IMG/VR virus record: IMGVR_UViG_3300025011_000016
Source of the DNA: a virus
Taxonomy: Duplodnaviria > Caudoviricetes
DNA length: 64,000 nt
Direction: 5' to 3' (one strand)
Position numbers and translations under genes: made by a program. This document shows positions 1,528 through 58,676 of the stretch, in pieces (position 1 is the first letter of the stretch; each line of letters starts with the position of its first letter). Below the pieces are notes generated by a model. It saw only the letters and a program-made list of their open reading frames with translations, had not been told where the DNA came from and searched no databases.

Positions 1528-4500
1528 ATGGCAGTAACACCACCAAAGAAAGTGGTCCCAAATTTATCATTGAAAGAAACATTGCAAGAGAAGGAACAAT
1601 TATATCATGGTAAAGATGATATATTCGGAATGACATTACTTACCAATCCAGGGTATATTAGTGCATCTCGAAACATTATGTTTACTTCTCATTTAAGACA
1701 ATTCGTAAATTTGAATAAACCGGATTTCCCAAAAGTATTAACGAATTATGAAAATCTTGTTGGTAAACATTCAACTGGATATTTCAAACCTAAGAATGAT
1801 TTAATCGTTGTGGATAAGATACCCAAGTTTAATGATATAAATGATGCAAATCATTTATATCTATTATTCTTATATGATAAGAAGACTAATACTTACTCCG
1901 TTATACAGAAAAAGATCGTTGAAGATCTAACAGAGAAGTTTGGTTTTAAATATAAGAATGATCTTATGGATTCTAAATCTATCGGAGATAAAATACAAGG
2001 AGGTAAAACATTATATTCATCCACATCATATGATGAAGATGATAATTATAACTATGGTAGAAATATTAAGTTTATGTATCTACTTGAAAACAATACTATT
2101 GAAGATGCCATAAAGTGCTCTGAATCGTTATCTAAAGAAATGACTTCGACTGAGGTTGAAACTGTAAAGATATCATTCAATGATAATGAAATCATGTGTA
2201 ATCTTTATGGCAACAATGATGAATACAAAGGTTTTCCAGATATTAATGAAAGGGTTAAAGATAAGATCATATGTGCCAAAAGAAGAATTCATAACAATCA
2301 ATTATTATTCGATCTAAAGAAATCAAATCTACGTAAGATTAATTTTATGTCAGATAACTTATTCTTTATTGATGGAAAGATTGTTGATATTACTATCTAT
2401 TCAAATAAACCTATTGGAGAAATTGAAGATAATATCTTTAATCATCAAATGTTAAAATACCTTAAAATGCAAAAAGAATTTTATACTAAAGTTTTAGATA
2501 GGTGTAAAAAGATAATTGCATCTGGAGCTAAATATTCAAATGAAATAAATTTCTATTATAAGAAAGCTAAGAATATATTAGACGATAATTACATGTACAA
2601 GGAAGAAGATAACAGTGTATTTAGTAATATGGTTATTGAATTCCTTGTTGAACGAGAAGTTCCTTTATCAGTAGGACAGAAGATTACTGGTCGTTACGGT
2701 AATATAATTGCTGTATTTTCTTTAATTGTCGGGGATATCCTTATAGCTTAAACTACTATTAGTAACAAGTTTAAGATTGGACAATTCGCAGCCAAGATTG
2801 TTAATAAACAATAAGGTTCAACGACTAGAGTGAAAACTCGTAGATTCGAAAGAATTGAAATGGGAAAACGATAGATTTTAATCTATTGAAGATATAGTCT
2901 AATATCCTAATGGAAGTTAGGGAAGTTCATAAGAGAACTGCATTATATAATAATGTGAATACTTGAATAAAGGTATTATAAGTCAGATCATACCAGATGA
3001 AGAAATGCCATTTCTTGAAACTGGTGAACGTGTCGATTGTATATTCAACTCCCTAAAATTTTGGGGCTTTATGTAGTGATATATAATGAAAACTACTTTA
3101 ATTGCGGGAAAATTCTTATGGCTTTATAATATAAAGATTGGACAATCCGCAGCCAAGATTGTTAGTAAACAATAAGGTTCAACGACTAGAGTGAGAACTC
3201 GTAGATATTAATATCGAAATTGGTAGAATCTTCTATATAGAAGATTATGAGATAGTCTGGTATCCTATATAACTATAGGGAAGTTCATAAGGGAACTGCA
3301 TTAATTAATAATTACTGTGAACACAACGAGGTGTGATAAATCGCTTAACTGAGAAGGTCCGGGCGATGTAAAACCTTTCTAATTGCGGGGACATTTGTTA
3401 ATTTCAATTTACCAAGTTAATATATTAATGGCTTAGTCCAATCAACTAAGGTATGGTAATAAGAATTGAAATTGAGTAATCCGCAGCCAAGATTGTTAAT
3501 AAACAATAAGGTTCAACGACTAGAGTGAAAACTCGTAGGTTTATTTATAAGCCGAAACGGAAGGCTGGTAATACTTAATATTATTAGAAGATATAGTCTA
3601 AAACATTTGTGAACTCATTTCAGTTATATGAGCAGTCAATAAATTTTATATGTAATCGCATAAGAGAAAGAATTGCGATAACAGAAGATATCTCTATAAA
3701 AGAACAAATGGTATTTAGTATTGTGGGTCATTTTAATCCTGAAGAACAAAGAAGACTTAGGATATATTATGATAAGTTATCAGATAATGGTAAGGATCAT
3801 TTCTTCGATGATATAGTCAAGCAAGGTATCTATATACACATTCCTCCACTTTGGGAAGACGTATGTTTATTCGATAAACTAAGAGCAATATATGCTGAAT
3901 TCACATGGATAAAACCATACTCAGTTTATGTGAATAAATTTGGAAGAAAGATCAAAATGATGAAGGATTTAATTGTCGGAGAAATGTATGTTCTTAAATT
4001 AAATCAAACTTCAAAGAAAGGTTTTTCAGCCAGATCCACTGGTTCGTTATCGAAGAGAGGAATTCCTATTTATTTATATGGGACTATATAGAGTAATCTA
4101 TATTGTGAAAACATTTTAATTGACGGGAAACTCCTTAGAACTTCTTAATTGAAGATTGGACAATCCGCAGCCAAGTCTCTTATAATAAGAGAAAGGTTCA
4201 ACGACTAATTTAGAGCTCAAGTGAGTGGATGAGAATCCTTTTAAATCAAAATAAATGTCATCCGTAAAAATAATAAATAACGGATGGTGATATAGTCTTG
4301 TATCCTATATAGTTATAGGGAAGTTCATAAGAGAACTGCATAGATTAACGACCTATGTGAAAGTATCGGAGAAATCAAATAAAGCAAAAACCCATCAAGA
4401 ATTATATCCACATACGCCTCAATTTGTAGGGGCTGTTGTATAGTAATATATAATGAATCTTTCTTAATTGACGGGAACCTTCTTAGAGCCTTATTTACTA

Positions 4501-5552
4501 AACTATAAGTATTATAGTGGCCAGAATAATTAACTGGGTATAGTAATAAAAATAAGGATTGGATAATCCGCAGCCAAGATTCTTATATAAGAATAAGGTT
4601 CAACGACTATCGAAAGCTTTTAATTAAGTTAGTAGAGTAAGCTCACAAGTCAATAATGGTGAGTTAAAACAGAAAGCTCCTAGAAATAGGATAAAGATAT
4701 AGTCTGCTATCTCAAGGAAACTTGAGGAGTTCATAATGGAACTGCATAAATTGACGATTTATGTGAACAAAAAAGGATACGAATTGGAGATTACTTATAT
4801 AGTTTCCCTGCATAGTAATATGCAGTTTAACAACTCTTTTAATTGACGGGAAACTCCTTAGTGCTTTATAATATAAAGATTGGACAATCCGCAGCCAAGC
4901 CTCTTTATGAGAGAAAGGTTCAACGACTAGAGCATTGCTCATAGATTTACAAGTTAATGGTAAGTCGAAATGGAGAGCTCTATTAATAAACTTTATTAAT
5001 AGATGAAGATATAGTCTGCACCTTAAAGAAATTTAAGGACAATCTTTTGAATTGTAATACATGTTACGAATGTATTTAACATATTGGCAGGAAAATATTA
5101 ACAGTATGATAGGTGTCGATCCAGACATCATAGCTAAACTACATTTATTCTATAGGTCTTCAGTTGTTGGAAGAAGAAACTTAGGTGAAACTTTGGCAAC
5201 TAGACTTAAGTTATTAAATGATTTTAAGTATTCTGCGGAATTCAAAAATAGAAATGTTGAAATTTTACAGGCATATTTAAAAGCTATGGGCGTAAAGATT
5301 GTATTTGAAAATGAGAATATGTATATTGAAATCTATACTGATCAGTTAGAAGAATATTCATCTGAGGGTAGGATATATATATGTACTAAACGTGAGTTTG
5401 AAGCCGTTCAGAGAGAAGCAGAAGTTCGCAGAGAGTTCCGTGAGGATAAGTGCTTAGTGGGAACTCATGCTGAAGTTGAAGCTATTATTCAAGCTCGTAT
5501 CAGCGATCTAAACAAACGAGATACTCATTATGTAATTGACATAAATTTATAA
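1528..5552 (+). CDS. rpoB: phage multisubunit RNA polymerase beta subunit, C-terminal half; 7 exons, about 755 aa after splicing (probably the non-virion enzyme)
   Basis: Exons 1528-2700, 2966-3054, 3329-3345, 3610-4067, 4369-4419, 4777-4791, 5088-5552 total 2268 nt, in frame. Joining restores GQKITGRYG|NKG, FNSL|GVINRL|N, SARSTG and TP|IRIGD|QE, matching beta motifs GDKxxGRHGNKG, NPLGVPSRMN, HARSTG and RFGEME. Confidence 0.9.
2701..2965 (+). ncRNA. group I intron, ORF-less (beta-C intron 1)
   Basis: 5' exon TACGGT|, IGS ATTGCTG. Core AATTGTCGGG / ATTCGCAGCCAAG / GTTCAACGACTA / AAGATATAGTCT. Ends ...AATACTTG. Confidence 0.9.
3055..3328 (+). ncRNA. group I intron, ORF-less (beta-C intron 2)
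   Basis: CTCCCT|AAAA pairs with TTTTGGGG (U-G at the splice site). Full P/Q/R/S. Ends ...ACACAACG. Confidence 0.9.
3346..3609 (+). ncRNA. group I intron, ORF-less, apparently lacking P9 (beta-C intron 3)
   Basis: ATCGCT| pairs with IGS GGCGAT. Full P/Q/R/S. Only about 10 nt (AAAACATTTG) separate S from the inferred terminal G. Confidence 0.75.
4068..4368 (+). ncRNA. group I intron, ORF-less (beta-C intron 4)
   Basis: TTCCT|AT pairs with ATGGGA. Full core. Ends ...AAGTATCG. Confidence 0.9.
4420..4776 (+). ncRNA. group I intron, ORF-less (beta-C intron 5)
   Basis: GCCT|C pairs with GGGGC. Full core with a longer P5 extension. Ends ...AAAAAAGG. Confidence 0.85.
4792..5087 (+). ncRNA. group I intron, ORF-less (beta-C intron 6)
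   Basis: GGAGAT|T pairs with AGTTTCC. Full core. The 3' site is G5087 (gives RIGDQE) or, less likely, G5090. Confidence 0.8.
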
Positions 5553-7186: not shown

Positions 7187-10100
7187 GTGAAAGATATGGA
7201 TAAGCAAAATATAATATCACAATTAAGTGATATTCATCAAAGGTTATTAGAAAAAGAAGATTTTGTTGATACTATACAGAGACTAGAATTAATGAAGATC
7301 AATAGACTTATCAATTATCTTTTATATGCAATTACTGAATATGATCCAGATGACAAATTAATACTTCAATTATTAATAAGGATATTGCAAAATATCTTTA
7401 ATAATAGTAGTGAAATATCTCCTGTGACCGATGAGGATTATGATAAATTATATGAGTTAAACAGACAATTTAATAATGAAGAAATTGTTGGATCGTCTTT
7501 TAATAAATCCAATAAGATAATTTCAAGTCATAAATATCCTGATTTGAGAGGAACTCTAGATAAGGTCCATTTCATTAGAATTAAAGATAAGGGTAAAGAC
7601 AAACGAAGATCTATAGAAGATTTTATTAATACTGTAGAAAATAAAATAGGCAGATCTTTAACTAAGGATGAATCATTCGCCTATCTATTTCCTAAATGGG
7701 ATGGTATATCATGTATATTCGAATGTGATGAAAATGGTAATACCGATAAGGCATTATCTAGAGGTGATACTGATATAAATGAAGCGGTCGACTGGACTAA
7801 ATTGTTTAAAGGATCTAATTTCAAGTATGTGTTCGGTAATGATATAAATAGATTATTTGGTTTAAAAACAGAGATTGTAATGAGTCGTTCAAATTATAAA
7901 TTAATATGTGAAAAAGAAGGAGATCTTAAAAGTCCAAGGAGTGCCGTATCGTCTATATTAACTTCATTAACTGGTGACACATCGAATTTACCATATCTAA
8001 CTATAATACCTTTACAGACTCAGGAGTTTGAAACTAAATCTATATATACTCCAACTATAGTATATGATGAGTTTCCATACAGTGGAGGATATTTAAACAA
8101 TTTAGATGAGATCGAATTAAGAATGTTGGAGTTAAGAGAACGTATTTATACTGAAATGGATATAGATACAGATGGTGTGGTTTTTCGTTTAGCTGATCCA
8201 TATATACAAAAACTATTGGGTCGGGAAGATAAGATAAATAAATATGAGTTTGCATATAAATTCCCTCCAGAACAAAAGAAAACTATAATTAAAAATGTTA
8301 ATTTCTCAGTTGGTCTTTTAGGTTCAGTGCGACCAGTAGCAGTAATAAAACCTGTTACAATAAAAGGTAATACTATAACCAATATATCATTGGGTTCTAT
8401 AGATAGATTTGAAGAATTGGATTTAAGATTAGGTGATGAAGTTATAATAAAATATGATGTTATACCATACCTATCAATAGATTCAACATGTAGAAAAGGA
8501 GATGGGACTAAGTTTACAACTCCAACAAAATGTATATATTGTAAGGAAGAATTAGTTAAAGATCCCATATTGAAATGTATTAACGAAAAATGTAATTGTC
8601 GAATTATAGGTAAGATTCTAAACTATACTAGTAAGATGAGTATTTCAAATATGGATGTTGGAACAGTAACCACTTTATTTGAAAATAAGTTATTACGATC
8701 TATTGGTGATCTATATAAACTCAAAGATCATAAATCTGATATAGTTTCATTAAGTGGTTTTGGTGAAAAATCCTTTAATAATATTATTAAAGGTATTGAT
8801 TCAAGACGAGATGTTTATGATTATGAGTTATTGGGTTCATTGGGTATTACAGATATAGGTAGGAAAATGTTTAAGCGAATTTTAAATATATATTATATTG
8901 ATGAACTTATAGATTCAAGTACATGAGTCTCATTGCATAGTGATATGTAATAGTAATTACTTTAATTGCGGGGATCTCCTTAGAACTTAAAACACTCTAA
9001 AGTAATAATGTTTAAGATTGGACAATCCGCAGCCAAGATTCTTAATAAAGAATAAGGTTCAACGACTATCCCAGTGGATGTGAAATTCATCATTAGGAGT
9101 AGGGCTCAAGTGAGTTGGGTGAAATCCCATTAAATCGAAATGAGTAACCCCATTATAAACCATTATAATGGGTGAAGATATAGTCTGTGCTTTAAGGAAA
9201 CTTAAAGATATAACTTAATCGTAAGTCCTAAAAATTTCATTTATATATTATTACTATGATACTAACAAATAATATAAGAAAGGAGGTGAATTAAATTGAT
9301 TAAAACTTTTAAAACAAGAATACGACCGACGAAAGAACAAGAAGTATATTTAAACAAATGCTTTGGATACAGAAGGTTTATATATAATAATGCTTTAGAA
9401 TACTTTAATACGATCTTAGAATTCAATGGTAATAATCTGGATAAAACATTAAAGAAGTTCTTTAATAAGTTTGATTATATCACTAATATATATTCTAAGA
9501 AAGAAAAAGAACCTGAACTGGAATGGACTAGGGAATATAATAAAAACATAAAGGATCAGGTATCTAGTGATTTTAATATAGCTGTTAATAGATTCTTTAA
9601 CGATATTAAAAATAAGAAGCGATGTAAACTTCATTTTAAAAGAAAGATCCATGGAAATGGGTCTTTTAGAATATACAATAAAAATAAAGGTAATGTTAAA
9701 ATTCTTGATAAAAACATATTCTCTTTTATTATTAATAGAGAATATGGTCATATGTCATTAAAAACATATGAAGATATAAGCTTTTTATATCATCATGATA
9801 TAAAAACTATGTCTATTCGTATGAAGAATTTTAAATATTATGTTTCATTCACCTATGAATTGGACATTCCAAAGCATGATCATGAGAAAGACATCATAGG
9901 TATAGACTTAGGGATACATAATCCAGTAGTTTGTTTTGATGGAAAAGATGTCATAGCTCCTAAATTTCCGAAAGGAATTATTAAGAGACTAGAGAAGAAA
10001 GTCGATAAGTTTTCAACGATAGTTTCTAAGAAGAAATATGATAAACGTAATCCATCAAAGAACTATATAAAAGCGAGAACCAAGCTTAATGATATTTATA

Positions 10101-10952
10101 TTAAAATAACAAATATCAGAATGGATTATATCCAGAAGGTATCTACATTTTTAGCTAAAACTTATAAAAACGTTATAGTTGATGAATTTAGTTTTAAGGA
10201 TGTATTAACAGAGTCTGATGGTATTGAGCGTATAAATAGAGGTATACACAGAGTTGGTGCCTTTACATTTACCACAGTGTTAAAATATAAATGCCACTTT
10301 TATGGTAGTGAATATATTTTAGCATTACCTAACAGTACGAACACATGCTCTGTTTGTAATCATAAAGTTAAAACTAAAATGAAGTTATCTCAAAGAGTCT
10401 TTAATTGCCCACAATGTGGACATATAGATGATAGAGATAACAATGCGGCTATTAATATCTATAATACATTTAAACGATCTTTATTAACTAACGTAAATAA
10501 AGATTTCGCCGTTGGTCGGACGGTTCAAAGAACCTAAACGGTTAAGTTATTATGGTATCTAACGAATACCATTAACACGACAGTTATGCCTAAAGAATAA
10601 GATGGGAGGGCTGTTATTAATCCGTGGGATTAAAGAAATAACAGCCGTTAAAATTATTGAGGGCATAAAGTCGAATAAAAAACTTATTGATTTATTACGA
10701 TCCGAGATTAATTTAAGGAGGGATGTAAGACGATATACAATTAAAGTATGTTTTACTAAAGTTAGAGATAAAGATTTTGAGAAATTTCTTGAAAGTAAGA
10801 ATGTATTGGTTCTTGAAAAATATAATAAGGAGGTTGATGTGTTAATCATACCTTATAAAGATATTGATTCAGTCAAAGTTACTACTGCGAAGAAAGATGG
10901 TAAGGATATCGTAACCATCGATGAAGCTTATAAGATGTTTGGTTATAAGTAG
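7187..10952 (+). CDS. ligA: NAD-dependent DNA ligase, 2 exons (about 698 aa)
   Basis: KWDG adenylation motif, SRGD, DGVV, AYKFPP, a Cys4 zinc finger and HhH repeats in exon 1 (7187-8914). Exon 2 (10584-10952) continues ELID|LCLKNK... into a BRCT-like C-terminus. Confidence 0.92.
9242..9251 (+). promoter_or_regulatory. early-type promoter motif inside the ligA intron, upstream of tnpB
   Basis: TATATATTAT lies downstream of the ribozyme core, 45 nt before the tnpB start. Confidence 0.55.
9296..10537 (+). CDS. tnpB: TnpB RNA-guided nuclease (IS200/IS605/IS1341-type)
   Basis: N-terminal HTH (RIRPTKEQ...CFGYRRFIYN), RuvC-I GIDLG, RuvC-II VDE, CxxC-CxxC zinc finger, RuvC-III DRDNNAAINI. AAGGAGGT RBS with TTG start. 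Confidence 0.93.
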   Translation: MIKTFKTRIRPTKEQEVYLNKCFGYRRFIYNNALEYFNTILEFNGNNLDKTLKKFFNKFDYITNIYSKKEKEPELEWTREYNKNIKDQVSSDFNIAVNRFFNDIKNKKRCKLHFKRKIHGNGSFRIYNKNKGNVKILDKNIFSFIINREYGHMSLKTYEDISFLYHHDIKTMSIRMKNFKYYVSFTYELDIPKHDHEKDIIGIDLGIHNPVVCFDGKDVIAPKFPKGIIKRLEKKVDKFSTIVSKKKYDKRNPSKNYIKARTKLNDIYIKITNIRMDYIQKVSTFLAKTYKNVIVDEFSFKDVLTESDGIERINRGIHRVGAFTFTTVLKYKCHFYGSEYILALPNSTNTCSVCNHKVKTKMKLSQRVFNCPQCGHIDDRDNNAAINIYNTFKRSLLTNVNKDFAVGRTVQRT

Positions 10953-11525: not shown

Positions 11526-14500
11526 TTGAAGGACTTCATAAAGGATTATAACAACACCAATGAAGAAAATATCAATTTTGATCTAATGACACGATCACAT
11601 GATGCTGATTTAACAGAGTATGTTGTTAATACCTGTAAATCATTAGAAGTTCTTAAATATATTAAATTCATTGGTTATGAATATATAACTGATGAAACGA
11701 AAATAGATATTAATTACTATATGAGTACGAGGAAGAAAAGTAAGAAGAAAAATGAAACAAAGTATATGTACCTGCAAGATAGTCGATATGGTGAAATGCA
11801 TTTAAAGTTTCATTTAAAATGTAAAGATCGATCATTAACTTTTATCAAGAAGATATTATTACCAGTGGCTGATGATAATGATTATTATTTAGTTAAAGGT
11901 AAAAGACATTCATTATTATATCAACTAGTTGATAGTTCAACTTATACAACTAGACAGAATTTAACATTAAAATCATTAAGACCTATTACGATGAAACGAA
12001 CTGAAAGAATATATTCAGATACAGATGGTACTAAACATTCAGCTCCTTCATATGCAATTTATATCTTCAAGAAAGAAGTAGATATATTATTATTCTATTT
12101 TGCAAAGATAGGTGTGTCAAGAACTTTAGAATATTTTTCAGTAAATCATATAATGAAGTTTAAATCAGAAATTGAAGATACTATCAATAATATATATTTC
12201 TCAATTAATAGTAAATTACATGTAGAGATCAATAGACATTTCTTTGATAAATATCCATATGTTAAGAGTATAGTATTTATGATATTGAATATTTGCACTA
12301 ATAGATTAACTGTTGAAGATCTAGAAAATAAATCTTTCTGGATTGAAAAGATAGGCTCTATGAATGCGACTAATGCATATAACTATCTAGAAAAAGGTAC
12401 TAATACTTTAGTATTCTTTGATAGGTTATTAGATGAAACAACTAAGAATATTTTAAAAATTCATGATGAGAATAATAAAAATATATACTCTGTAATTCGT
12501 TGGATTAAATTATAGTCCCATTATAGAGTGATCTATATTGAAAACTTCTTTAATTGTCGGGAAACTCCTTAGTGCTTTATAAAGATAAAGATTGGACAAT
12601 CCGCAGCCAAGATTCTTATAATAGGAATAAGGTTCAACGACTAATTTAGAGCTCAAGTGAGTGAGTTTAATATAACTCTTAAATCGAAATAAGAAGCATC
12701 TTATATAAGATGATGATATAGTCTGTGCTTTATTGAAAGATAAAGAAAGATAACATCTTTACATTATCTAACGAATAATGTTAACACTCAGGTTTCAAAA
12801 CTTTAATGAATTACGTAAGAAAGATAATCTTGATCTTGCCAATAAACGTTTACGATGTAATGAACTCATCGCATCATTATTAACTAAAGCTTTTAGTACT
12901 AGAGTTGATAGAATTATTGGTTTTGGTAATAAAGTTACGTTAGATAACATTAAGGAAATATTCAAATTTCCAGGTGATGTAATAATGCAGCAATTGCATA
13001 AGTCAGGATTATTTAGATATGATATTTTATTGTCCATTATAGTAGTGATATTATAATGAATTTTCTTTAATTGGCGGGGACATTCTTAGGGCTTAAACTA
13101 CTAAAATATATCAGTGATGATATACTAACTAAGAGTAACTAACTTAGTATGAGTAATAATGTTTAAGATTGGACAATCCGCAGCTAAGCATCTTTATATA
13201 AACCCCCATAATTATTAATACGTTATACAATATAAAGGAGAGGTGTGACTGTAATGAAAGGACGATTGGGTGAAAATAAATGTCCCTCTTGTTACGAATA
13301 ATTATTCAATTAATTCTGAGGGATTTATTAGGAATGATAAATTCAATAGAATTTTGACCCGATGGAAAAATAATAGAGGTTATGAAGCTGTGCAATTATC
13401 ATGTATTGATGGTATAACAAGAAGTTTTACAATTCATAGATTGATGGCTCATCATTTTATACCAGGGTTCGACATTTCAGATAGATCCATTGTTGTTCAT
13501 CATAAGGACAGTGTAAATAAAACTAACTCATTAGATCTTCTAACCGTTTGTACTCAAAAAGAAAATATTAAGTATTCTATCGAAGAAGGTAATAAACCAA
13601 ATGGTGAAAAACATCCGATGGGTAAATTTCCAGATGAGCTGGCTAATAAAATAGTTGCCTTATTACAAAAAGAAAAAAGTACCGATGAAATATTTAATAT
13701 ATTAGATTTAGAAGTTAAGAAGAATATGCGTATATTTATAAATGATCTTAGAGCTAAACGAACCCGATTGTATTTAACTGAAGGTTTGGATTTAAAGAAG
13801 CATGTGCAGGAAAAACATGATATAAACTTGGTGAAGAGGGTGATTCGTTATATGAAGATAGGTATGACGGTAGATAATATAATCAATATGATTGGAAAAG
13901 GAAATGCTGGTAGGCATGAAAGGGAGAGATACTCCTCGTTAATACAAAGGATACATGACGGGAAAGCGTGGGGAAGATTATATAAAGATGATAGTTCAAC
14001 GACTAATGATGACTACATGGTTATTAAAATTAAAATGTAGTTATAGATTTACAAGCTAATGGTAAATCGAAATGGGGAACACCTCATATTAAGTTGATAT
14101 GAGATGAAGATATAGTCTGGTATCCTAATATTAAATTAGGGAAGTTCATAAGAGAACTGGGTTTCGTTGCGGAAAACCTGAACCTGGGGATAAAATTAAC
14201 GATCTCGACTTCTTTAGTAAGTTCAAATATACCCTAAATTTTGGGGCGTTATAGAGTGATCTATATAGATAAAATTCTTTAATTGTCGGGGAACTCCTTA
14301 GAACTTCTTAATTGAAGATTGGACAATCCGCAGCCAAGATTGTTGATAAACAATAAGGTTCAACGACTAGAGTATAACTCGTAGATATATAAGTTAATGA
14401 TATATCGAAATAAGTTTAATCTTCTTATAGAAGATTGTGATATAGTCTTGTATCCTATATAACATTAGGGAAGTTCATTTGAGAACTGTATAGAGTTACG

Positions 14501-15746
14501 ATCTATATGAAAGTATACGTAAAGGACCAAATTCCTTGGGTTTTAATAAATAGGCCCATGATCTTTTAATTGCGGGAAACTCCTTAGTACTTCTATATGA
14601 AGATTGGACAATCCGCAGCCAAAATTGTTGATAAACAATAAGGTTCAACGACTAGAGTATAACTCGTAGATATATAAGTTAATGATATATCGAAATATAG
14701 AACTATCGAAAGATAAAGAGATAGTCTGGTATCCTAATTAACATTAGGGAAGTTCACAGGAGAACTGCATTATTTTACGAATAATGTGAACTCATCGAAT
14801 AAAAATGATAATAATATCTCAGTTAAATATCGCGGCATACACCCGAGTTATCTGGCCCGCGTAGATATTAACGTTTGCGGTGAACGTAGAAATATAATTG
14901 CCGCCTTTTCTTTAATTGACGGGAACTCCCTTATAGCTTAAACTACTAATAGTAACAAGTTTAAGATTGGACAATCCGCAGCCAAGATTGTTATAAAACA
15001 ATAAGGTTCAACGACTAGAGTGATAACTCGTAGATTCGAAAGAATTGAAATGGGAAAACGATAGAGTTATTCTATTGAAGATATAGTCTAATATCCTAAT
15101 ATAAGTTAGGGAAGTTCATAAGAGAACTGCATAGATTGATAAACTGTGTGAATAAATGAATTCAGACCCTAGAAATAAATTTGGGGCAATATCGAGTGAT
15201 CGTTATTGTTAAACTACCTTGACTGCGGGAAACTTCTTAGAGCTTTAAATTGATAAAGATTGAACAATCCGCACCCGATATTCTATATAATAGAATAAAG
15301 TTCAACGACTAGAGCATATTTGCTCGTAGATATAAAGTTATATCGAAATTAGTAGAATCTCTTAGGAGATTATGAGATAGTCTGGTATCCTATATAACTA
15401 TAGGGAAGTTCATAAGAGAACTGTACTATTTAACGAATAGTATGAACACACGGGAACTAGTGGTATTATAACACCATTCTGTAAAACTAGTGGATTATTC
15501 TTCGATGGTGCATTTGAACCAGAAAGTTTTAAATATGATTTTGATAAGGAGATAACTGACTTTAGAAAATCAACTAGTAATAACATAATTGTTGATACTC
15601 ACTATGATAATATATCTGAGTATTTTGAAGGTAGAGAACGATTTAAAGAAATGAATAGTCGAATCAAAATATCAGAGATTGAACGAACTGATAATAGTAA
15701 GTATTATATTAAAATTAAGCTTGCTAGTAATACTGATGATATATAA
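11526..15746 (+). CDS. rpoB: phage multisubunit RNA polymerase beta subunit, N-terminal half; 7 exons, about 556 aa after splicing
   Basis: Exons 11526-12505, 12792-13023, 14189-14235, 14520-14541, 14798-14881, 15159-15170, 15453-15746 total 1671 nt, in frame. YYLVKGKRHSLLYQL corresponds to FIINGxERVxVSQL. Joining gives KYTL|KGPNSLG and RGIHPSYLARVDINVCG|NSDP|GTSG (beta GPGG and [23 protein letters not shown]). Confidence 0.88.
12506..12791 (+). ncRNA. group I intron, ORF-less (beta-N intron 1); closest 'empty' relative of the two TnpB introns
   Basis: GGAT|TA pairs with TAGTCC. Full core. The 3' domain GTCTGTGCTTTA...CTAACGA...TAACACTCAG parallels that of the TnpB introns. Confidence 0.9.
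13024..14188 (+). mobile_element. group I intron carrying an HNH endonuclease in P6 (beta-N intron 2)
   Basis: TGAT|A pairs with TTGTC. Q at ~13176 and R at ~13994 are separated by the ORF, with arms CATCTTTATA / TATAAAGATG. Ends ...AACCTGGG. Confidence 0.85.
13270..14040 (+). CDS. intron-encoded HNH homing endonuclease
   Basis: GYEAVQL, IHRLMAHHF, VHHKD..NK.N..L, QKEN. Its last codons overlap the intron R element. Confidence 0.8.
   Translation: MKINVPLVTNNYSINSEGFIRNDKFNRILTRWKNNRGYEAVQLSCIDGITRSFTIHRLMAHHFIPGFDISDRSIVVHHKDSVNKTNSLDLLTVCTQKENIKYSIEEGNKPNGEKHPMGKFPDELANKIVALLQKEKSTDEIFNILDLEVKKNMRIFINDLRAKRTRLYLTEGLDLKKHVQEKHDINLVKRVIRYMKIGMTVDNIINMIGKGNAGRHERERYSSLIQRIHDGKAWGRLYKDDSSTTNDDYMVIKIKM
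14236..14519 (+). ncRNA. group I intron, ORF-less (beta-N intron 3)
   Basis: CCCT|AAA pairs with TTTGGGG. Full core. Ends ...AGTATACG. Confidence 0.9.
14542..14797 (+). ncRNA. group I intron, ORF-less (beta-N intron 4)
   Basis: GGGT|TT pairs with AGGCCC. Full core. Ends ...CTCATCG. Confidence 0.88.
14882..15158 (+). ncRNA. group I intron, ORF-less (beta-N intron 5)
   Basis: GCGGT|GA pairs with TTGCCGC. Full core. Ends ...AATAAATG. Confidence 0.9.
15171..15452 (+). ncRNA. group I intron, ORF-less (beta-N intron 6)
   Basis: CCCT|AG pairs with TTGGGG. Variant core ACTGCGGG / ATCCGCACCCG / GTTCAACGACTA / GAGATAGTCT. Ends ...ACACACG. Confidence 0.88.
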
Positions 15747-32300: not shown

Positions 32301-33134
32301 AGAACTGCATTATCTGACGAATAGTGTGAACATATCTCGTATTATGAATTTCATTAACGAAGCAGATCGAGAAATCCATGTCTGCATATACAGTGATGTA
32401 TATTAAAAAACTATTTTAATTGTCGGGGATCTCCTTAATGCTTTATTTAATAAAGATTGGACAATCCGCAGCCAAGATTCTATTTAATAGAATAAGGTTC
32501 AACGACTATCGAAAGCTTTTAATTAAGTTAGTAGAGTAGATTACATATTGATGGTAATCGAAGTGGAGAGCTCCAATATTAAAATTAATTAATTTTAATA
32601 TTGGATGAAGATATAGTCTAGTATCCTAATGTAAATTAGGGAAGTTCATAAGAGAACTGCATGTGAGTTATGACATATGTGAATATATCGTATGCCAAAA
32701 CCCTAGTCATGGCAAATGCTAAGTTTGTCGGTCGAGTTATAACACATCAGGGATCATTTAATGGATCAGTTACTGAATTCTATAAGAAACTAATGGGATT
32801 TGCAACTGAAATACCTGAGAATTTAATCGATGAATTTGAATATATATTTGCTGCACCGAAAACATTAACTAATACTAATCTAACTGATCTTATATCTAAT
32901 GCTGAACAAACTGCTACATTTATTGTGAAATCATTAACTGGTGATAATTCATCCCCTAGTGATGATGATAACTTATTAAAAGATTTGTTATTTAATAAAA
33001 TCTCTAGAGAATTCCTACCAATGATTCCATGGAGTACTGCTGATACAATATTAGAGGAGTGTAAGATAGAATTGGAGAAGTTGAAAGCTGAAAAGAAAAT
33101 GACTACTCCTGAAGGTACTGAAGACGTACAATAA
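29374..33134 (+). CDS. portal protein (T4 gp20-like), 3 exons, about 754 aa
   Basis: Exons 29374-31166, 32340-32367, 32691-33134 total 2265 nt, in frame. ELFIPVGRSG..GLEFDIISGQ...FISLTGVPS resembles the gp20-type pattern. Located in the morphogenesis cluster. Confidence 0.75.
31167..32339 (+). mobile_element. group I intron carrying an HNH endonuclease in P6 (portal intron 1)
   Basis: TCGGT| pairs with GCCGA. Q at ~31306, R at ~32142, S at ~32255. Ends ...TATCTCG. Confidence 0.87.
31401..32138 (+). CDS. intron-encoded HNH homing endonuclease
   Basis: YLVSDWGTV, YYEVTL, IHRLVAETFL, VVNHK, NNCVLNLEHTT..YN. Confidence 0.88.
   Translation: MRNIVEIFKPIYIYGERTNYLVSDWGTVMNGTTKKELKQRLNADNYYEVTLWVNNKAVNRRIHRLVAETFLENPNNYPVVNHKKGGLTEDGQWNNCVLNLEHTTISYNTKHAYDTGLKNPLVGEECGFNIYPEPLIDKIINKLLMAIPPDIIADELGVKVSLVTSVRDGYSWKHKIKGLVFPKPAFAHTNEYTYELKFKILNLLYVGKTTKEIIERLDLPKKNKFKSLIDNIRRRNMERMIINIR
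32368..32690 (+). ncRNA. group I intron, ORF-less (portal intron 2)
   Basis: GCAGAT| pairs with GTCTGC. Full core. Ends ...TATATCG. Confidence 0.88.
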
Positions 33135-39295: not shown

Positions 39296-42200
39296 TTATG
39301 AATTGAGTTCATCGAAGAAATCCAATGGTATACCTGTTTCTGATGACATATCATCATCAAAATTTTCAACATAATTTTTTGGTGGAATTAACATATCACT
39401 ATGCTTCATTTCCCTACGAGCTTTTTGGATTTCTTCAATTAATTTTATATTATAATCGTCTTGAGTTTTAACACCAACATCTTTAAAATATCCCTTGCTA
39501 TCATCCGAGAGTTCTTCATATAGTTCATCATATGTTAACCCTTTATTACGTTTTTCTTCGTCGGGTATATCTCCCCTGACAAAACCGAATCTATGAAGAT
39601 TATTTCCATGATAGAATACATATAGAACTATTAGATATGACATTATTGAATCGTCATGAAAAGAAGTCCCTGCAGCTATTTTACCAGTTTTAGTTTTAAC
39701 TAGTCGTAATAGATCATCAATAATATTACAGGTAACAAATTTATCTTTAAATTCATTCACATGTCGTTCAAGTAAACTCCTGTCGTGTTAGTAGTATTCG
39801 TTAGATACCACGATAACTTAACCGTTTAGGTTCTTTGAACCGTCCGACCAACGGCGAAATCTTTATTTACGTTAGTTAATAAAGATAGTTTAAATGTATT
39901 ATAAATATTAATAGCCGCATTGTTATCTCTATCATCTATATGTCCACATTGTGGGCAATTAAAGACTCTTTGAGATAACTTCATTTTAGTTTTAACTTTA
40001 TGATTACAAACAGAGCATGTAATGGTACTATTCGGTTCTGCTAAAATATATTCACTACCATAAAAACGACATTTATATTTTAACACCTGCGTAAACGTAA
40101 AGGCTCCAACTCTATGAATACCCCTATTAATACGCTTAATACCATCAGACTCTGTTAATAAATCTTTAAAACTAAATTCATCAACTACTACGTTTCTATA
40201 GGTCTTGGCTAAGAATGTAGATACCTTCTGAATATAATCCATTCTAATATTCACTATTTTGGCGTGAATATCATTAAGCTTGGTTCTCGCTTTTATATAG
40301 TTCTTTGATGGATTACGTTTATCATATTTCTTCTTAGAAACTATTTCCGAAAGCTTATCAGTTTTCTTCTCTAGTTTCTTAATCTTCCCTTTCGGAAATT
40401 TAGGATTTATGATATCTTTTCCATCAAAACAAACTACTGGATTATGTATCCCTAGGTCTATACCTATAGTATTTTTCTCATGGTTATGACTTGGATTATC
40501 TATTTCATATGTGAATGATACATAATATTTAAAATTCTCCATACTAATACTCATTGTTTTCATCTCATGATGATATAAGAAGCTTATATCTTCATATGTT
40601 TTTAATTCCATATGCCCATATTCTCTATTAATAATAAAAGAGAATTTATTTTTATCGAGAATCTTAACAGCAGCTTGCTTAATATATATTCTAAAAGAAC
40701 CATTTCCATGAATCTTTCTTTTGAAATGTAGTTTACATCGCTGCTTATTTTTAATATCTTTAAAGAACTTATTAACGGCTAAGTTAACATCACTAACCGT
40801 TTCATTTTTTATAGACTTATTATATTCTCCAGTCCATTCAAATCCAGGTTCCTTTTCTTTCTTAGAATATATATGAGTAATAAAATCAAATTTATCAAAG
40901 AACTTCCTTAAATCTTTATCTACAATATTACCATTAAATTCTAGGATCTTATTAAAATACTCTAAAGTATTATTATATACAAATCGTCTATAACCAAAGC
41001 ATTTGTTTAAATATGTTACTTGTTCTTTAGTTGGTCGTATTCTTGTTTTAAAAGTCTTAATCAATTTTTATTCACCTCCTTTCTTATATTATTTGTTAAA
41101 GGTATAATATAATTGTATTAGGAATGAATTAGTAAGACTTACGGTTAAGTTATTCTCTAAGTTTCCTTAAAGCACAGACTATATCTTCACCCATTATAAT
41201 AATAATTATAATGGGGCCACCCATTTCGATTTAAGGGATTCTCACCCACTCACTTGAGCCCTACTCCTTTACGGATAGTCGTTGAACCTAAATCTATAAA
41301 TAGATCATTGGCTGCAGATTGTCCAATCTTAAACATTGTTACTTTGTTGTAGTTTAAGCACTAAGGAGTTTCCCGCAATTAAAGTAGTTTCAATTACATA
41401 TTACTATGCAACGTGACTCATACATGAATCATAACTTCTCTGGACTTATCTCCGGTCCAAACACCATATAGTTTTCGTCTAGCTGATTCTAATTTTAACA
41501 TACCTTCTGAGTCAAGTTTATCATCAAGTCCGGATGAAACAAGATCTTTATCATTATCAAAGTATAAATTAGAGCGTATATCTGTTAATTTTAAAGAATC
41601 CATTATGGCTTCACCATTAAAATTACGTTCTATACATAATATAGACTTAGGGATATGATGTTTGATAAGAGTAGTTATAAATTTAATAGTCTGAACTACA
41701 CCTATATATGGTGATTTAAATTCAGCAACAGGTTTTATAGTATATGGGTCAAATACCGTAACGGCAGTATTATCTTTACCATAACCATTAGAGGTATCAA
41801 CTCCAACGAAGTATATCCTATCTTTCTTCAAGGGTTCATATATATCTAATTTAAATAGTTTATTTATAAATATTTCTTCCTTAATTGGCTTCTTCATTTC
41901 TTCAATAGTGGCCAAATCTTCTGCGGGGAAAGGAGATTCGGATGAACCCCTCATTCTTTGAAGGAAGACCTCTCTTTTAATCTTTACTGGATTATTCAGT
42001 AAGATCTGACAGATACTTTTAAACCATATTTCATCTTTACCAAGTTGTTGATATTGGTATTCAATATAGACGATTCCACTTTCAGAATTAATTGCAATAT
42101 ATTCATCTAAATCTTCTTTAGTCCAATCATAAAACTTTTCAGTCCAACGACAAGTTGTAGCGATAATCTTTAATGCGTCCTGACCTGCTGAAGTATCTAA

Positions 42201-44014
42201 ATCTCCCGTTTATATTCATATGAATCGTTAATTCATATAGTCCATACGGACATCCCTAAGTTTCTTTAGGATACTAGACTATATCTTCATCTCTTAATAA
42301 AGTAATTACTCATCAATAAGAGAGTTTCTTATTTCGATTTAAGGGATTTTTTTACCCACTCACTTGAGCCCTACTATTTAGTCGTTGAACCTTTCTCTGC
42401 TTAATAGTTATATTCTTTATTAATGTGATTCCAAAGTTTCCTATGCTTTATTGCAATAATTAGTGCGTAAAAACTATTATTTTCTTTCTTTTCTTTATAA
42501 CCATAAAAATTCATAATTTTCATCATAGATAACTTTTGTGTCAGCATATTACATATTTCTCTAATTGTTTCCTCACTATAAACATTATTATTGTTACTAA
42601 TTCCTCTACAATAATTATTCCCATGATCAACCGCGTGTAAATTATTTTCCGAATATGTTGTCCATTCCAAATTTTCAAAATAATTATTTTCAGTATTACT
42701 GTCTTTATGATTTACAATAATCCTCCCGACAGTTTCATCAAAACCTTTACAAAATTCCCATGCAACTAATCGATGCACACCTATATATCTTCTGACATTA
42801 TCATTATCTCTTAAATGTATCTTAACATATCCATTTTTATCTCTAAAATTAATTTTCCGTATTTTATCTTTCTTAATATCAAACACTTTCCCATAATTAC
42901 TAATCATATACCTATCTTTTTGTATATTCGGATAAGTAACTGGCCTGAATTCTTCCTTTTCCATAGCTATTATAATATGCATAGTATCGATTTCCTCCTT
43001 CTTTTATTAATTAGTTTAATTGAATGTATAATCTTATTTAAATATTAAACAGAGACTTGGCTGCGGATTGTCCAATTCTAAACATTATTATCTTAATCTA
43101 GGTTAATTACTCCCAGCCACTATTATAGAAATATAATAGTTTGATAGTCTAGACTCTAAGAGGTTCCCCGCAATTAAAGAAAATCCTATGTGATATCACC
43201 ATCACATAGCCCTAGTTAAAGGTGTACTTGTGAAAATACGTCCATATTGGGCATTATTCCTTTTGGCATTTTGAGAGGCTGTAAGATATGCTGGACCCGA
43301 TGCTTCAACTATAGTTTTAATAAAAAGGGTAAATTCAACTTCATCACAGTACTGAATCGGCTGAGTTGATCCGCGACCGATACCCTCAGCTCCTTCTACT
43401 GAACGAGCCGATGGTTTGGCAATTATTTTATTATTATTAGTTGGGTTGGAGAGAGATTTGACATTGTCGTCACCTTCTACTTTTTTACCCTCATCATTAT
43501 AAACAACTTTAAATTGTAAATATTTAGGTAATAAATCTCTCTGTTTTTTCATTCGCAACAAATTATCATTAGCATCCTCTTGACGCTTATTTAAAAACAT
43601 CATTTCTGAATTTGTTGTCCCGAACAAAAAGCTCCAATCAATAATTGCCAAAGCAGACTGTGTTTTACCTATTTGACGTGGAATTACCTCATATAAATCA
43701 ATTCCATTTAGGAAACACCAAGTAGCAGCTAAATTCGCCCTATTTAATTGATACGGAATTCCAGTTCCACCTTGATCTGGGATTAAACAAACTTCCCTTA
43801 AAAAATACCATGGATTAACAAGACACTCATTAATTATTCTGAATATTTGTTCGTCGGTTAAAAAAGGGGAGTATGGATCGACTCCCCTTAATGACATATC
43901 ATAGAGTTTCAAAAAGAACATATTATTCTTAATACCAAGTTGTCGTAAATCCATTGCAGTCTGTAGAAATGATATATTTCTGGTGTCTACATCATAATCA
44001 AATTTTCTAGCCAT
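39296..44014 (-). CDS. terL: terminase large subunit, 3 exons, about 685 aa
   Basis: Exons 44014-43220, 42206-41428, 39779-39296 total 2058 nt, in frame. Walker A PRQIGKT, Walker B CDEVEF, coupling motif TSTP|GD, nuclease GVDTSNG..D, ERN and HDDSIMS. Confidence 0.92.
39780..41427 (-). mobile_element. TnpB-carrying group I intron (IStron-like, no tnpA) in terL (intron 2)
   Basis: TGAT|TC pairs with IGS GAGTCA. Full core. The arms ATAACTTAACCGT / ACGGTTAAGTTAT flank tnpB. Ends ...AACACGACAG, and the join gives REVMM|SLLERH. Confidence 0.9.
39826..41064 (-). CDS. tnpB: TnpB RNA-guided nuclease (second copy)
   Basis: Colinear homolog of 9296..10537 with the GIDLG / VDE / DRDNNAAINI catalytic motifs and zinc finger intact. 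Confidence 0.93.
   Translation of the reverse strand: MIKTFKTRIRPTKEQVTYLNKCFGYRRFVYNNTLEYFNKILEFNGNIVDKDLRKFFDKFDFITHIYSKKEKEPGFEWTGEYNKSIKNETVSDVNLAVNKFFKDIKNKQRCKLHFKRKIHGNGSFRIYIKQAAVKILDKNKFSFIINREYGHMELKTYEDISFLYHHEMKTMSISMENFKYYVSFTYEIDNPSHNHEKNTIGIDLGIHNPVVCFDGKDIINPKFPKGKIKKLEKKTDKLSEIVSKKKYDKRNPSKNYIKARTKLNDIHAKIVNIRMDYIQKVSTFLAKTYRNVVVDEFSFKDLLTESDGIKRINRGIHRVGAFTFTQVLKYKCRFYGSEYILAEPNSTITCSVCNHKVKTKMKLSQRVFNCPQCGHIDDRDNNAAINIYNTFKLSLLTNVNKDFAVGRTVQRT
42207..43219 (-). mobile_element. group I intron carrying an HNH endonuclease in P6 (terL intron 1)
   Basis: CCT|T pairs with AGGG. Full core split by the ORF. Ends ...TATAAACG. Confidence 0.88.
42401..42982 (-). CDS. intron-encoded HNH homing endonuclease (NUMOD4-HNH-like)
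   Basis: YMISNYGKV, GYVKIHL, VHRLVAWEF, VNHKDSNTENNYFENLEWTT..EN. N-terminus similar to 25946..26563. Confidence 0.9.
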   Translation of the reverse strand: MHIIIAMEKEEFRPVTYPNIQKDRYMISNYGKVFDIKKDKIRKINFRDKNGYVKIHLRDNDNVRRYIGVHRLVAWEFCKGFDETVGRIIVNHKDSNTENNYFENLEWTTYSENNLHAVDHGNNYCRGISNNNNVYSEETIREICNMLTQKLSMMKIMNFYGYKEKKENNSFYALIIAIKHRKLWNHINKEYNY

Positions 44015-49483: not shown

Positions 49484-49602
49484 CCCATTATAGTTTTTTA
49501 TTATATATTTGTTGTATGCTAAAAAATAAAGACTTCTTTATAATCGGCCAGTATAAACATTATCATAATGAAACTGGTAATACTGAAAGGAGTAGATGTA
49601 AT

Positions 49603-54769: not shown

Positions 54770-54772
54770 AAA

Positions 54773-55756: not shown

Positions 55757-55809
55757 TATTATCCACCCCCATTTTATACCATTATTCTCTTGTTTAAATC
55801 GAAGTATAA

Positions 55810-55850: not shown

Positions 55851-55854
55851 TAGT

Positions 55855-58676
55855 TTATGGTCTGGATTTAAAGAAAGAATCTATATAAGAAGCTTCTCTC
55901 TTTTTAAATGTTAATGGATTAATAAGTTGTCGTCCTAATGCCTGGAAGGATAAACCTATTAAGACAGAAGGATGTTTTTCTAATGCGGATTCAACAGTCA
56001 TTATTTGATACTCAGCTTTTTCACCATACTTACTGAAATCCGGTCTATATAAGATATCCTTACTGTGTCTTAATAGAGGGTGTATCAACAATTCACCATG
56101 AACCGCATCTGAATCAATTTTAGATTCGATTAATAGATCTAACATCTTTTGACATAACTCATCAACAGATCTACATCCAACATGATCACTTCTATTAAGT
56201 AAATACATGATGTTATAAAGAGGACGTGTCAATTCGTTATTCTCAATTTCTAATACGAATATCTTAGAATCATCATCAATTTTAGCAAAGTCAATTTCAT
56301 AAGCGTCTTTATGAGATTTACTCTTATTCATTAACTCAACTATATCTGGAGATATATATAAGTCTTTCTGATTCAATTCCATACATTCTATAATCTCACC
56401 AGATTTTTTATGTTTAACATGGAATATAGTTACAAATGTATTGAAATCAGTATCATCATATTCATTAATACTAATAATATTTTTATTAATAATAACTAAA
56501 GAATAATCATTTAAGTTAATGTCGTCATTAGTTATATTAAGAAGAATTTCATTTGCATTAATAGTGAAAAACTTATAGAAATCAGCATTGAATTCTATCT
56601 TTTCCGAAACTGTTGTTAGTAGGTGTTTAGTTGATAATACTCTCTGAGATACAGGTTCTGTTATTCTTGATCCAGCATATCCACCAATAGAGATACCTTT
56701 ATTGGTATGATATAGTTGCCCATAACAATGCCAACATATTCCATCTTTAGCTGAACAAGTTGCTGGAGATTTAACATAGATAGTTTTACCAACAATATTT
56801 TCCTCATGACCTTCAATGACGTTATAATCTCTAGTATTCTCAAGACGATAATATCTTCCCTGTAATCGTCTTAAATGCTCTTTAGTTTTGATTTCGTATT
56901 GAATTGAATGAATGCTATTACATGTTTTAACAGTAGGACTTAATTTTATTCCTGATGTTAAAAGCATTACTAATCGTGCAAACGTATTTTCATATAGATC
57001 GTAAATCCATACAGTTCTCTAATGAACTTCCCTATAACTATATAGGATACAAGACTATATCACCATCCAATGATGGATGATTCTTATTTCAGTTTAACTA
57101 TAAACTTACGAGCTTTTACTCTAGTCGTTGAACCTTTCTCTTAGTAAGAGTATTGGCTGCGGATCGTCCAATCTTCAATTAAGAAGTTCTAAGGAGTTCC
57201 CCGTCAATTAAAGAAATTTTCTCATTATATATTACTATATAATGCCACCTGTAATTGATGGCCAGATCTACCCATACGTAAGTTGACATTATTCGTTACA
57301 TAATGTAGTCCACAAAGAACTCCCTATATTTCTATAGGATACCAGACTATCTCTTCTCATTTAATTAAATGAGTCTCTCCATTTCGATTTAAGAGTTTTC
57401 ACACCCACTCACTTTGAGCTCTAAATTAGTCGTTGAACCTTTCTCTTATTATAAAGAGACTTGGCTGCGGATTATCCAATCTTAAACATTATTACATTAG
57501 TAGTTTAAGCAGTAAGGAACTTCCCGTCAATTAAAAGAGAAATGGCTAAAAATTAACCAGTTTATTCATAATTAATGATTTTCTTCCACCACGATACTTT
57601 CACATAGGTCGTTAATCCATGCAGTTCTCTTATGAACTTCCCTAATATTTATTAGGATACAAGACTATATCACAATCTTCTATATAGAAGATTCCATTAA
57701 TTTCGATATAACTTTATATCTACGAGTCACGCTCTAGTCGTTGAACCTTATTCTTATATAAGAATCTTGGCTGCGGATTGTCCAATCTTCAATTAGAAGT
57801 TCTAAGGAGTTTCCCGTCAATTAAAATAGTTTTACAACATAAGTCCACCTATGCCGCCCCAAGTTGTTTTAGGGAGTCAATATAGTAATTAGTGATGTTG
57901 GATAATCCCCCTACTATGAAGTTACTATTGATCGGATGGGGGATTGTATTTCCAGAAAGATCCGGCTTCAGCCCCCCACTAATTGCGAACTCTGCTAACT
58001 GTTTATGTTTAATCCCAGCACCAGATTTTAGTATTGGCTGTAGCATATTTCCAACAGGATCATTTTCTAAAATGGCAACTTGCTCATGCATTAGATCATC
58101 TAGTAATGATTCTATTTCCGTAGGTTGAAGTCCGTCTGGAATAACCGTTCGTATGATTTCGTTAAATCTAGGTATACGTTCGCTTACGTCAATAAACGTC
58201 TCAATATTAATTGATAACCCCAATATCATATTAAAGTCAGTTGATATTCTAGATAGATTGTGGATCATATCTGCAATTACTTTATTCATTTTAGTATTAC
58301 TGATAATCTTTCTAAATGGTAAAACTATCTTTCTATCAACATATGATTTGATATAATCTGCCGATATCTTACTACAATCAACTATATAAGATTCATTCAA
58401 TCTATCAATATAACCCAACTTCATCATCGGTGACCAAAACATATAATTTGTTAAGAAATGTCTTAATTGGAGAGTATGAATTTGTTCTCCTTCTTTATCT
58501 GAAAATTTAAAATACACTGGGCATGTTCTCAACTCCTTAACTTCAAACCCTCGTTTTAAATAATCATAGAACAACTCTAGATTAGCTTTGTAGTCCTTCT
58601 TAGTAGCCATTAAGTTTGAGATAATAAAGATCTTATTGGATAGCTCACTGATTATTTTTCCTACATCCGAATCCAA
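55855..58676 (-). CDS. rpoC: phage multisubunit RNA polymerase beta' subunit, C-terminal half; 4 exons, about 662 aa
   Basis: Exons 58676-57871, 57591-57556, 57276-57258, 56982-55855 total 1989 nt, in frame. SGAG..Q...SGGLKPD, bridge-helix region YYIDSL|GGRKSLIMNKLV|MGRSGH|FARL, zinc site C..DGICWHCYG, trigger loop ITEPVSQRVLSTKH. Confidence 0.9.
56983..57257 (-). ncRNA. group I intron, ORF-less (beta' intron 3)
   Basis: GCCAT| pairs with GTGGC. Full core. Ends ...AAATACG. Confidence 0.9.
57277..57555 (-). ncRNA. group I intron, ORF-less (beta' intron 2)
   Basis: TGGT|TA pairs with TAGCCA. Full core. Ends ...ACTTACG. Confidence 0.9.
57592..57870 (-). ncRNA. group I intron, ORF-less (beta' intron 1)
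   Basis: CCCT|AA pairs with TTGGGG. Full core. Ends ...AAGTATCG. Confidence 0.9.

Follow-up and report, generated by a model that had tools for sequence, protein, structure and literature searches.

The 64-kb stretch of DNA analysed here (the window), with a G+C content of 30.7%, comes from the virus record IMGVR_UViG_3300025011_000016, and its gene order is syntenic with that of jumbo phages of the Bacillus phage AR9/PBS1 type. Seven of its genes are split by group I introns, 24 of which were mapped, covering 12,759 nucleotides (nt) or 19.9% of the window. They are distributed over the genes for the non-virion RNA polymerase (nvRNAP) beta-C (six introns, within 1528-5552), the NAD ligase (one), nvRNAP beta-N (six, within 11526-15743), PolB (four), the portal protein (two), TerL (two) and nvRNAP beta'-C (three). 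AR9 proteins with counterparts in the window include nvRNAP beta-C (g089), NAD ligase (g095), beta-N (g105), the exonuclease part of PolB (g132), portal (g128) and beta'-C (g154), together with SbcC, sheath and the major capsid protein, and the TerL fragments of the window match terminase PHROGs. All seven interrupted genes are core genes, and the earlier note on this DNA had likewise listed no accessory gene among them. Some core genes are spared: those for the major capsid protein, sheath and SbcC, as well as the helicase and the prohead protease, are uninterrupted in the window.

Most of the introns are small and carry no open reading frame (ORF): 18 are ORF-less and span 252–357 nt, four contain HNH genes and two contain tnpB (Table 1). 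The counts per gene, the cargo, the share of about 20% and the length range given in the earlier note were all recovered, the last to the nucleotide. The HNH/NUMOD4 genes lie between P6 and P7, and their products are classed as homing endonucleases by their domains, with Pfam HNH_3 and/or NUMOD4 in three of the four and PHROG 59/959 in all four. The two tnpB genes are full-length and placed after P9; lig1 and ter2 thus begin with a group I ribozyme and continue with complete TnpB domains, which is the layout of an IStron; a tnpA ORF was not seen with either. Some tandem introns are separated by exons of only 12, 15, 17, 19 or 22 nt.

Table 1. Group I introns of the window and the genes within them (bits, score with Rfam RF00028).
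Feature	Host gene	Length	Coordinates	Strand	Evidence or remark
bC1, ORF-less	nvRNAP beta-C	265 nt	2701..2965	+	56.8 bits; site GRYG/NKG; P1 6 bp
bC2, ORF-less	beta-C	274 nt	3055..3328	+	76 bits; site CCCT; spliced alignment
bC3, ORF-less	beta-C	264 nt	3346..3609	+	56.6 bits; after 17-nt exon 3329-3345
bC4, ORF-less	beta-C	301 nt	4068..4368	+	78.7 bits; spliced alignment
bC5, ORF-less	beta-C	357 nt	4420..4776	+	74 bits; spliced alignment
bC6, ORF-less	beta-C	299 nt	4792..5090	+	94.6 bits; after 15-nt exon 4777-4791
lig1, tnpB after P9	NAD ligase	1669 nt	8915..10583	+	80.3 bits; P1 AGAT/TC with GAGTCT; ter2-like tail
tnpB in lig1		413 aa	9296..10537	+	Pfam OrfB_IS605, Cas12f1-like_TNB, HTH_OrfB
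bN1, ORF-less	nvRNAP beta-N	286 nt	12506..12791	+	84.8 bits; site GGAT
bN2, HNH gene between P6 and P7	beta-N	1165 nt	13024..14188	+	split Rfam match; core motifs; junctions
HNH endonuclease gene in bN2		256 aa	13270..14040	+	phrog_59/959 HNH endonuclease
bN3, ORF-less	beta-N	284 nt	14236..14519	+	59.1 bits; site CCCT
bN4, ORF-less	beta-N	256 nt	14542..14797	+	68.7 bits; after 22-nt exon
bN5, ORF-less	beta-N	277 nt	14882..15158	+	69.6 bits; site GCGGT; 93% identical to bC1
bN6, ORF-less	beta-N	282 nt	15171..15452	+	43.1 bits, sub-gathering; site CCCT; after 12-nt exon 15159-15170 (NSDP)
pol1, with HNH gene	PolB	979 nt	25779..26757	+	split Rfam match; spliced alignment
HNH endonuclease gene in pol1		205 aa	25946..26563	+	Pfam HNH_3; phrog_59
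pol2, ORF-less	PolB	252 nt	27219..27470	+	71.6 bits; site ACGGT
pol3, ORF-less	PolB (motif A)	303 nt	27700..28002	+	85.6 bits; site GGAT; 3' border +/- few nt
pol4, ORF-less	PolB	256 nt	28009..28264	+	69.5 bits; after ~6-nt micro-exon 28003-28008; 6-bp P1 wholly micro-exon
por1, with HNH/NUMOD4 gene	portal	1173 nt	31167..32339	+	split Rfam match; site TCGGT
HNH/NUMOD4 endonuclease gene in por1		245 aa	31401..32138	+	Pfam NUMOD4; phrog_59
por2, ORF-less	portal	323 nt	32368..32690	+	64.1 bits; after 28-nt exon
ter1, with HNH gene	TerL	1013 nt	42207..43219	-	split Rfam matches; site = AR9 terL intron site
HNH/NUMOD4 endonuclease gene in ter1		193 aa	42401..42982	-	Pfam NUMOD4 and HNH_3
ter2, tnpB after P9	TerL	1648 nt	39780..41427	-	83.9 bits; sister of lig1, 86% core identity
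tnpB in ter2		412 aa	39826..41064	-	Pfam OrfB_IS605, Cas12f1-like_TNB
bP1, ORF-less	nvRNAP beta'-C	279 nt	57592..57870	-	68.8 bits; site CCCT
bP2, ORF-less	beta'-C	279 nt	57277..57555	-	67.8 bits; after 36-nt exon
bP3, ORF-less	beta'-C	275 nt	56983..57257	-	69.1 bits; after 19-nt exon

Judged by core motifs, covariation and exon pairing, the 24 elements are genuine group I introns, that is, of the self-splicing type, and they are predicted to splice. The Rfam model RF00028, whose gathering score is 50 bits, gave 18 matches at or above that score and six weaker ones on the whole window; 19 of the 24 introns reach it (56.6–94.6 bits) when lig1 is included from a local search. The four HNH introns produce split matches of 20–30 bits, because an ORF of 0.6–0.8 kb separates P6 from P7. 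The P4 motif has 22 matches at two mismatches or fewer, against 0.05 expected in the window, and 24 copies of the P7 12-mer with the P8/P7' 10-mer after it were counted, all within the seven genes; the cores thus stand where the earlier note had placed them. Among the 18 ORF-less copies, compensatory double changes were found in 19 of 38 RNAalifold pairs, in P3, P6, P9 and P9.2, P4 and P7 being invariant and therefore uninformative on covariation.

T is the last base of all 24 5' exons, and each exon pairs with a guide that starts with G within the first 30 nt, placing a U.G pair at the splice junction; a 3' tail ending in CG or TG is conserved among the introns. A P1 of at least 4 bp can be formed in 22 of the 24 introns, compared with 15% when exons are swapped and 25% at random T sites, and the mean exon/guide pairing falls from 4.5 to 2.5 bp upon swapping. 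The claim that each intron has its own guide, matched to the local exon, is thereby upheld.

The lig1 ribozyme (8905-9207) was absent from both whole-window Rfam scans, even at E ≤ 1, and scored as listed in Table 1 when searched alone; default Rfam filters can overlook a strong group I intron in AT-rich DNA.

The splice junctions were mapped with our own protein-to-DNA spliced aligner, in which every intron had to follow a T and close with a G. Uninterrupted references were P0034 for beta-C, P0122 for beta-N, and, for all seven genes, the orthologues in G001 (IMGVR_UViG_3300009430_000004), a complete IMG/VR genome of 218 kb with synteny to the entire window. The seven genes re-join in frame and colinear with the intron-less G001 orthologues at 59–70% identity, P0034 and P0122 confirming beta-C and beta-N, and conserved motifs are restored, as had been proposed from the letters alone. 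Junctions fall within such motifs, including GRYG/NKG, FNS/LGVINR/L, NSDP/G, FTSTP/GD and polymerase motif A. When 16 rules for the exon end and intron end were compared, T...G gave the top summed protein alignment, although G is the rarest base; by gene it was best in five of seven, tied in the ligase and one point behind in terL. The T...G restriction is therefore not the source of the good re-joining, since it wins among all 16 rules.

Some junction models were tried and set aside. Ligase borders at 8911-10579, which yield one more identical residue, were dropped for 8915-10583, with a 6-bp P1 and a tail common to ter2. Spliced alignment guided by AR9 proteins, at 26–30% identity, produced spurious micro-exons in tnpB and wrong beta-N exons, and it was replaced by the references of 59–70% identity. 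A naive nucleotide search of G001 for empty sites was correct for only about 11 sites and too noisy for the others.

The junctions in PolB, where two introns in tandem cut through motif A (DxxSLYP; 27690-28270), are the uncertain ones. The exon between pol3 and pol4 is only 1–6 nt long, and the favoured model of 6 nt accommodates the two P1 helices without a change in protein length, but turns the conserved serine of the motif into alanine. With an exon of 3 nt or 1 nt the serine would be retained at the cost of the P1 rule or the length, and the P1 that Rfam assigns to pol3 was rejected, as it would put the conserved DNVVDMD residues within the intron.

It is hardly credible that these elements are decayed, non-splicing relics or assembly artefacts that leave their host genes broken. 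The case for splicing is drawn from DNA sequence, bN6 lies below the Rfam threshold and the PolB micro-exon model alters a motif A serine, all of which would suit such a reading; seven essential genes would be dead, however, and the co-varying core pairs, the T...G rule and the P1 pairing speak for intact ribozymes. The sequence itself also recurs. Exact protein look-up traced it to contigs from groundwater metagenomes, of up to 272.5 kb, and other assemblies of that aquifer study, filed under several further sample accessions, match it at 100% identity over 5–23 kb, PolB and portal introns included, so that the swarm is no one-off assembly artefact. The source would be an uncultured jumbo phage similar to AR9/PBS1, with a genome of about 272 kb, whose sequence was assembled from groundwater metagenomes of an aquifer; samples of study PRJNA268031 are among those that contain it.

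The choice of sites bears on how the introns came to be where they are. Closely related introns occupy sites that share the last 4–5 nt of the 5' exon and nothing beyond about 5 nt. Sites ending in CGGT hold bC1, bN5, pol2 and por1; those ending in CCCT hold bC2, bN3, bN6 and bP1; bN1 and pol3 follow GGAT, and lig1 and ter2 follow a site ending in GAT. Once the guide region was masked, introns whose 5' exons end in the same tetramer showed 79.3% identity in pairs, and all other pairs showed 69.7% (p about 2e-4 by permutation); in the same relatedness test the 3' exon gave no signal. In the trio bC1/bN5/pol2, differences between guides coincide exactly with differences between exons.

Protein endonucleases require long sites that span both exons, and the pattern therefore argues against a choice of new sites directed by HNH or TnpB proteins. 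Pairing of the guide sequence, on the other hand, is a requirement of reverse splicing (PMC3984707). The pattern fits insertion or survival governed by the guide, and it favours guide-directed insertion, probably by reverse splicing, over nuclease homing.

A different history, in which each intron was collected horizontally at its cognate site by nuclease homing or co-conversion during co-infection and none moved within the genome, is considered unlikely. Six introns do carry nucleases, the distance from ORF-less to HNH introns is 28–250 nt in beta-N, PolB and portal, and several sites are filled in relatives, with TerL 277 occupied in AR9. However, the nearest relative of most copies is a window intron at a different site, and the 4–5 nt in common at the sites of related introns are too little for recognition by a protein. 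Furthermore, beta-C and beta', with six and three introns, have no nuclease gene within the gene, and none turned up in those neighbouring ORFs that were scanned. Free-standing homing endonucleases adjoining beta-N and beta' were considered and rejected, as the two paralogous inserted genes that were checked encode DUF4116 repeat proteins. These paralogues, at 15871-16539 (+) and 58798-59436 (-), directly adjoin beta-N and beta', have repeats that are 34–41% identical, are not at syntenic places in G001 and are not recognisable nucleases. The earlier note had offered reverse splicing, co-conversion or help in trans from the HNH and TnpB nucleases as routes for the ORF-less introns: the site data favour guide-directed insertion, co-conversion beside the HNH introns is plausible for beta-N, PolB and portal during spread between phages, and nothing was found in favour of help in trans.

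The intron family itself is not confined to this lineage. Neither candidate marker of a private lineage held: the P7...P8 core pattern matches more than 116 IMG/VR contigs, which disqualifies it as family-specific, and the P9.1 tail was rejected as lineage-specific, as AR9 and other relatives have it. With core motifs that are generic and a tail common to AR9 and relatives, the family is therefore old and clade-wide. The exact P7...P8 core is also present on contigs labelled as giant-virus metagenome-assembled genomes (L025 and L028 in IMG/VR), so the core consensus is not restricted to phages.

Within this family, the copies of the window tend to be each other's closest kin. The ORF-less copies are 52–90% identical in pairs (mean 68%), and the best match lies inside the window for 22 of the 24 introns, at up to 93% identity, compared with 69–78% for the best match outside; the in-window margin of ter1, bC3 and por2 is a point or less. 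A tree was built from the 24 window introns and 104 others, taken from AR9, G003, G004, further relatives and IMG/VR. In it, 15 window introns group as a clade without outsiders (support 0.76), the trio bC1/bN5/pol2 has a support of 0.999 and the two tnpB introns are sisters. bC3, the most divergent copy, occupies a site that is also filled in relatives, and it looks older, as do bC5, bC6, bP2, ter1 and por2. Sites also filled in relatives are beta-C 443, beta-N 423, 438, 474 and 478, and TerL 277 (AR9); those seen filled only in this phage are beta-C 437, 596 and 613, beta-N 345 and 446, ligase 569 and TerL 536. The fourth intron of AR9 terL (L124:34803-38004) and ter1 (43219-42207) interrupt the same codon, in ..TSTP/GD and ..TTTP/ND, and the site is empty in G001.

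The distribution of introns among relatives bears on the same question. RF00028 was run against nine relatives from IMG/VR, of which eight have a completeness rating of 92% or more. No match was found in G001 (69% beta-N identity), G002 (IMGVR_UViG_3300004463_000226; 234 kb, 62% beta-N identity), G007 or G008; G006 has two, G005 nine, G004 14 and G003 16, and G009 (IMGVR_UViG_3300001528_000360; 152 kb, rated 62% complete) has 21, of which 16 are above threshold. The closest complete relatives, G001 and G002, thus have zero; by beta-C identity (79–82%), P0002 and P0003 are the closest relatives overall. Of 35 related loci, 24 are intron-free for 10 kb to each side of beta-N, an interval in which the swarm phage has 13 introns. 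These data point to gain rather than loss, and the swarm has likely expanded within this phage lineage. The expansion within one lineage put forward in the earlier note is accordingly likely, on the nearest relatives in the window and the empty closest genomes, with the correction that the family is not private, as AR9 and relatives share its tail and sites.

Another account would make the introns old residents homogenised by gene conversion (concerted evolution), the intron-free relatives having lost their copies precisely. In AR9, G003 and G004, too, introns are more alike within than between genomes, and the mosaic of bC1 and bN5 suits such an exchange. However, dozens of precise losses would be needed, given four complete relatives without a single match and the synteny of G001 throughout, and conversion alone leaves unexplained the link between likeness outside the guide region and target tetramer. 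This account is judged quite improbable, more so than horizontal collection.

Taken as a whole, we consider it probable that a genuine AR9-type intron family has multiplied in this lineage at sites limited by the guide, most likely by an RNA route. A copy would move to a new site in another essential gene of the same phage lineage and survive only where the last 4–6 bases of the upstream exon, ending in U, pair with its guide, which would afterwards be fine-tuned to the new exon. In the most likely route, the excised intron RNA would reverse-splice into another phage transcript and then be copied back into DNA. Homing or co-conversion beside the HNH- or TnpB-bearing copies would probably add spread between co-infecting phages.

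Several points weigh against this reading. The reverse-splicing route needs a reverse transcriptase, and none was seen among about 30 ORFs scanned in the window. Selection in favour of splicing would raise the share of guide-matched sites under any chemistry of insertion. The introns bC1 and bN5 are about 95% identical in the core and unlike in P1 and P9.2, a mosaic that is also compatible with gene conversion between resident introns. The 15-member clade has only moderate support and outgroup sampling was uneven. Several sites are also filled in relatives, so some of the introns may be old or have come in by homing. Lastly, splicing and the RNA route are both argued from the DNA.

A bolder proposal, which we advance tentatively as a possibility that falls short of probable, is an active burst of RNA-guided movement of ORF-less introns in one genome, by reverse splicing at guide-matched sites of 4–6 bases. 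The DNA of PBS1 and AR9 contains uracil; if that of the swarm phage does as well, integration might go directly into single-stranded replication intermediates. Were the burst real, no virus would be known with a denser intron load, and reverse splicing in protein-coding genes would gain its first statistical evidence.

Reverse splicing is a textbook yet unproven route to new sites, for which the best evidence is circumstantial and comes from rDNA (PMC3984707). Related copies in unrelated genes, with only the guide-complementary tetramer in common and with re-tuned guides, make the hypothesis directly testable. The clade ranges from zero to more than 20 introns, with 24 here in a quarter of a genome, and for this reason it represents a natural experiment on the invasion of selfish ribozymes and their tolerance in dense viral genomes. 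There is also a practical side: gene callers see fragments of seven essential genes, with exons of 6–22 nt inside catalytic motifs, and such phages are badly annotated without intron-aware methods.

Heavy intron loads occur elsewhere in the clade, and the premise of the earlier note that phages usually carry a handful per genome is outdated. AR9 has 18 RF00028 matches in 251 kb, 13 of them above threshold, and G009 exceeds that number. Jug phages have a mean of 18.5 introns per genome of 360–402 kb (PMC12880540) and crAss zeta phages up to 14 (PMC7886860). The earlier note had also held that novelty would be lost if related phages routinely carried the same load: relatives range from 0 to 21, and heavy loads do exist among them. 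The window is about twice as dense as the densest stretch seen in any relative and about 5–8 times as dense as the genome-wide average of AR9 or Jug phages, the densest load found for any phage in the comparisons made here. The swarm is an extreme case of the known introns of AR9-type jumbo phages, and it is of value for its density, the intron-free close relatives and the statistically supported link between relatedness and target.

AR9 and PBS1 (Takahashivirus) are the nearest known systems. They are the same type of phage, with two multisubunit RNA polymerases and syntenic genes, and share the intron family, including the P9.1 tail, and HNH genes inside introns; AR9 also has multi-intron genes, with terL annotated in five pieces and g189 in six. 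In contrast, six of the seven host genes have intron-free orthologues in AR9, the densest comparable stretch of AR9 has about 10 introns against 24 per 64 kb, and the window copies are mostly ORF-less, with two carrying tnpB. The prohead protease gene is intact in the window (49516-50436), while the AR9 annotation breaks its counterpart, g114, into two pieces; occupancy thus differs in both directions.

Jug and crAss-like zeta phages are similar in having many small, mostly ORF-less group I introns in core genes, among them terL and the polymerase, and some of the junctions in Jug phages are backed by metatranscriptomes (PMC12880540). They belong to unrelated phage clades and hosts, their density per kb is about 8 times lower, and the available portions of these reports mention no tie of intron relatedness to target sequence.

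IStrons resemble lig1 and ter2 in the order of group I ribozyme and tnpB, both here after a site ending in GAT. Unlike IStrons, the two show no tnpA ORF, lie in essential phage genes, make up only two of the 24 members of the swarm and have ribozymes that group with other window introns in the tree. Group I introns of fungal and lichen rDNA likewise include related introns at non-homologous, guide-matching sites, in eukaryotic rRNA genes rather than the viral protein-coding genes seen here; a statistical test was possible in the window because 24 copies lie in one stretch. The classical phages T4, Twort and SPO1 have one to a few introns per genome, some with homing endonucleases, and their spread is ascribed to endonuclease homing. 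Their introns (T4 td/nrdB/sunY, Twort, SPO1) are also of group I and interrupt conserved motifs of genes for DNA and nucleotide metabolism (in part from PMC3984707).

Some minor observations complete the description of the locus. When the SbcC-like gene was compared with cultured phages by blastn, no match was obtained. The 3' end of the HNH ORF in bN2 (13986-14040) overlaps the P7 strand of the ribozyme. Finally, the intron-free genomes G001 and G002 measure 218 and 234 kb, against the 272.5-kb contig of the swarm phage, and introns may explain a good part of this gap in size.

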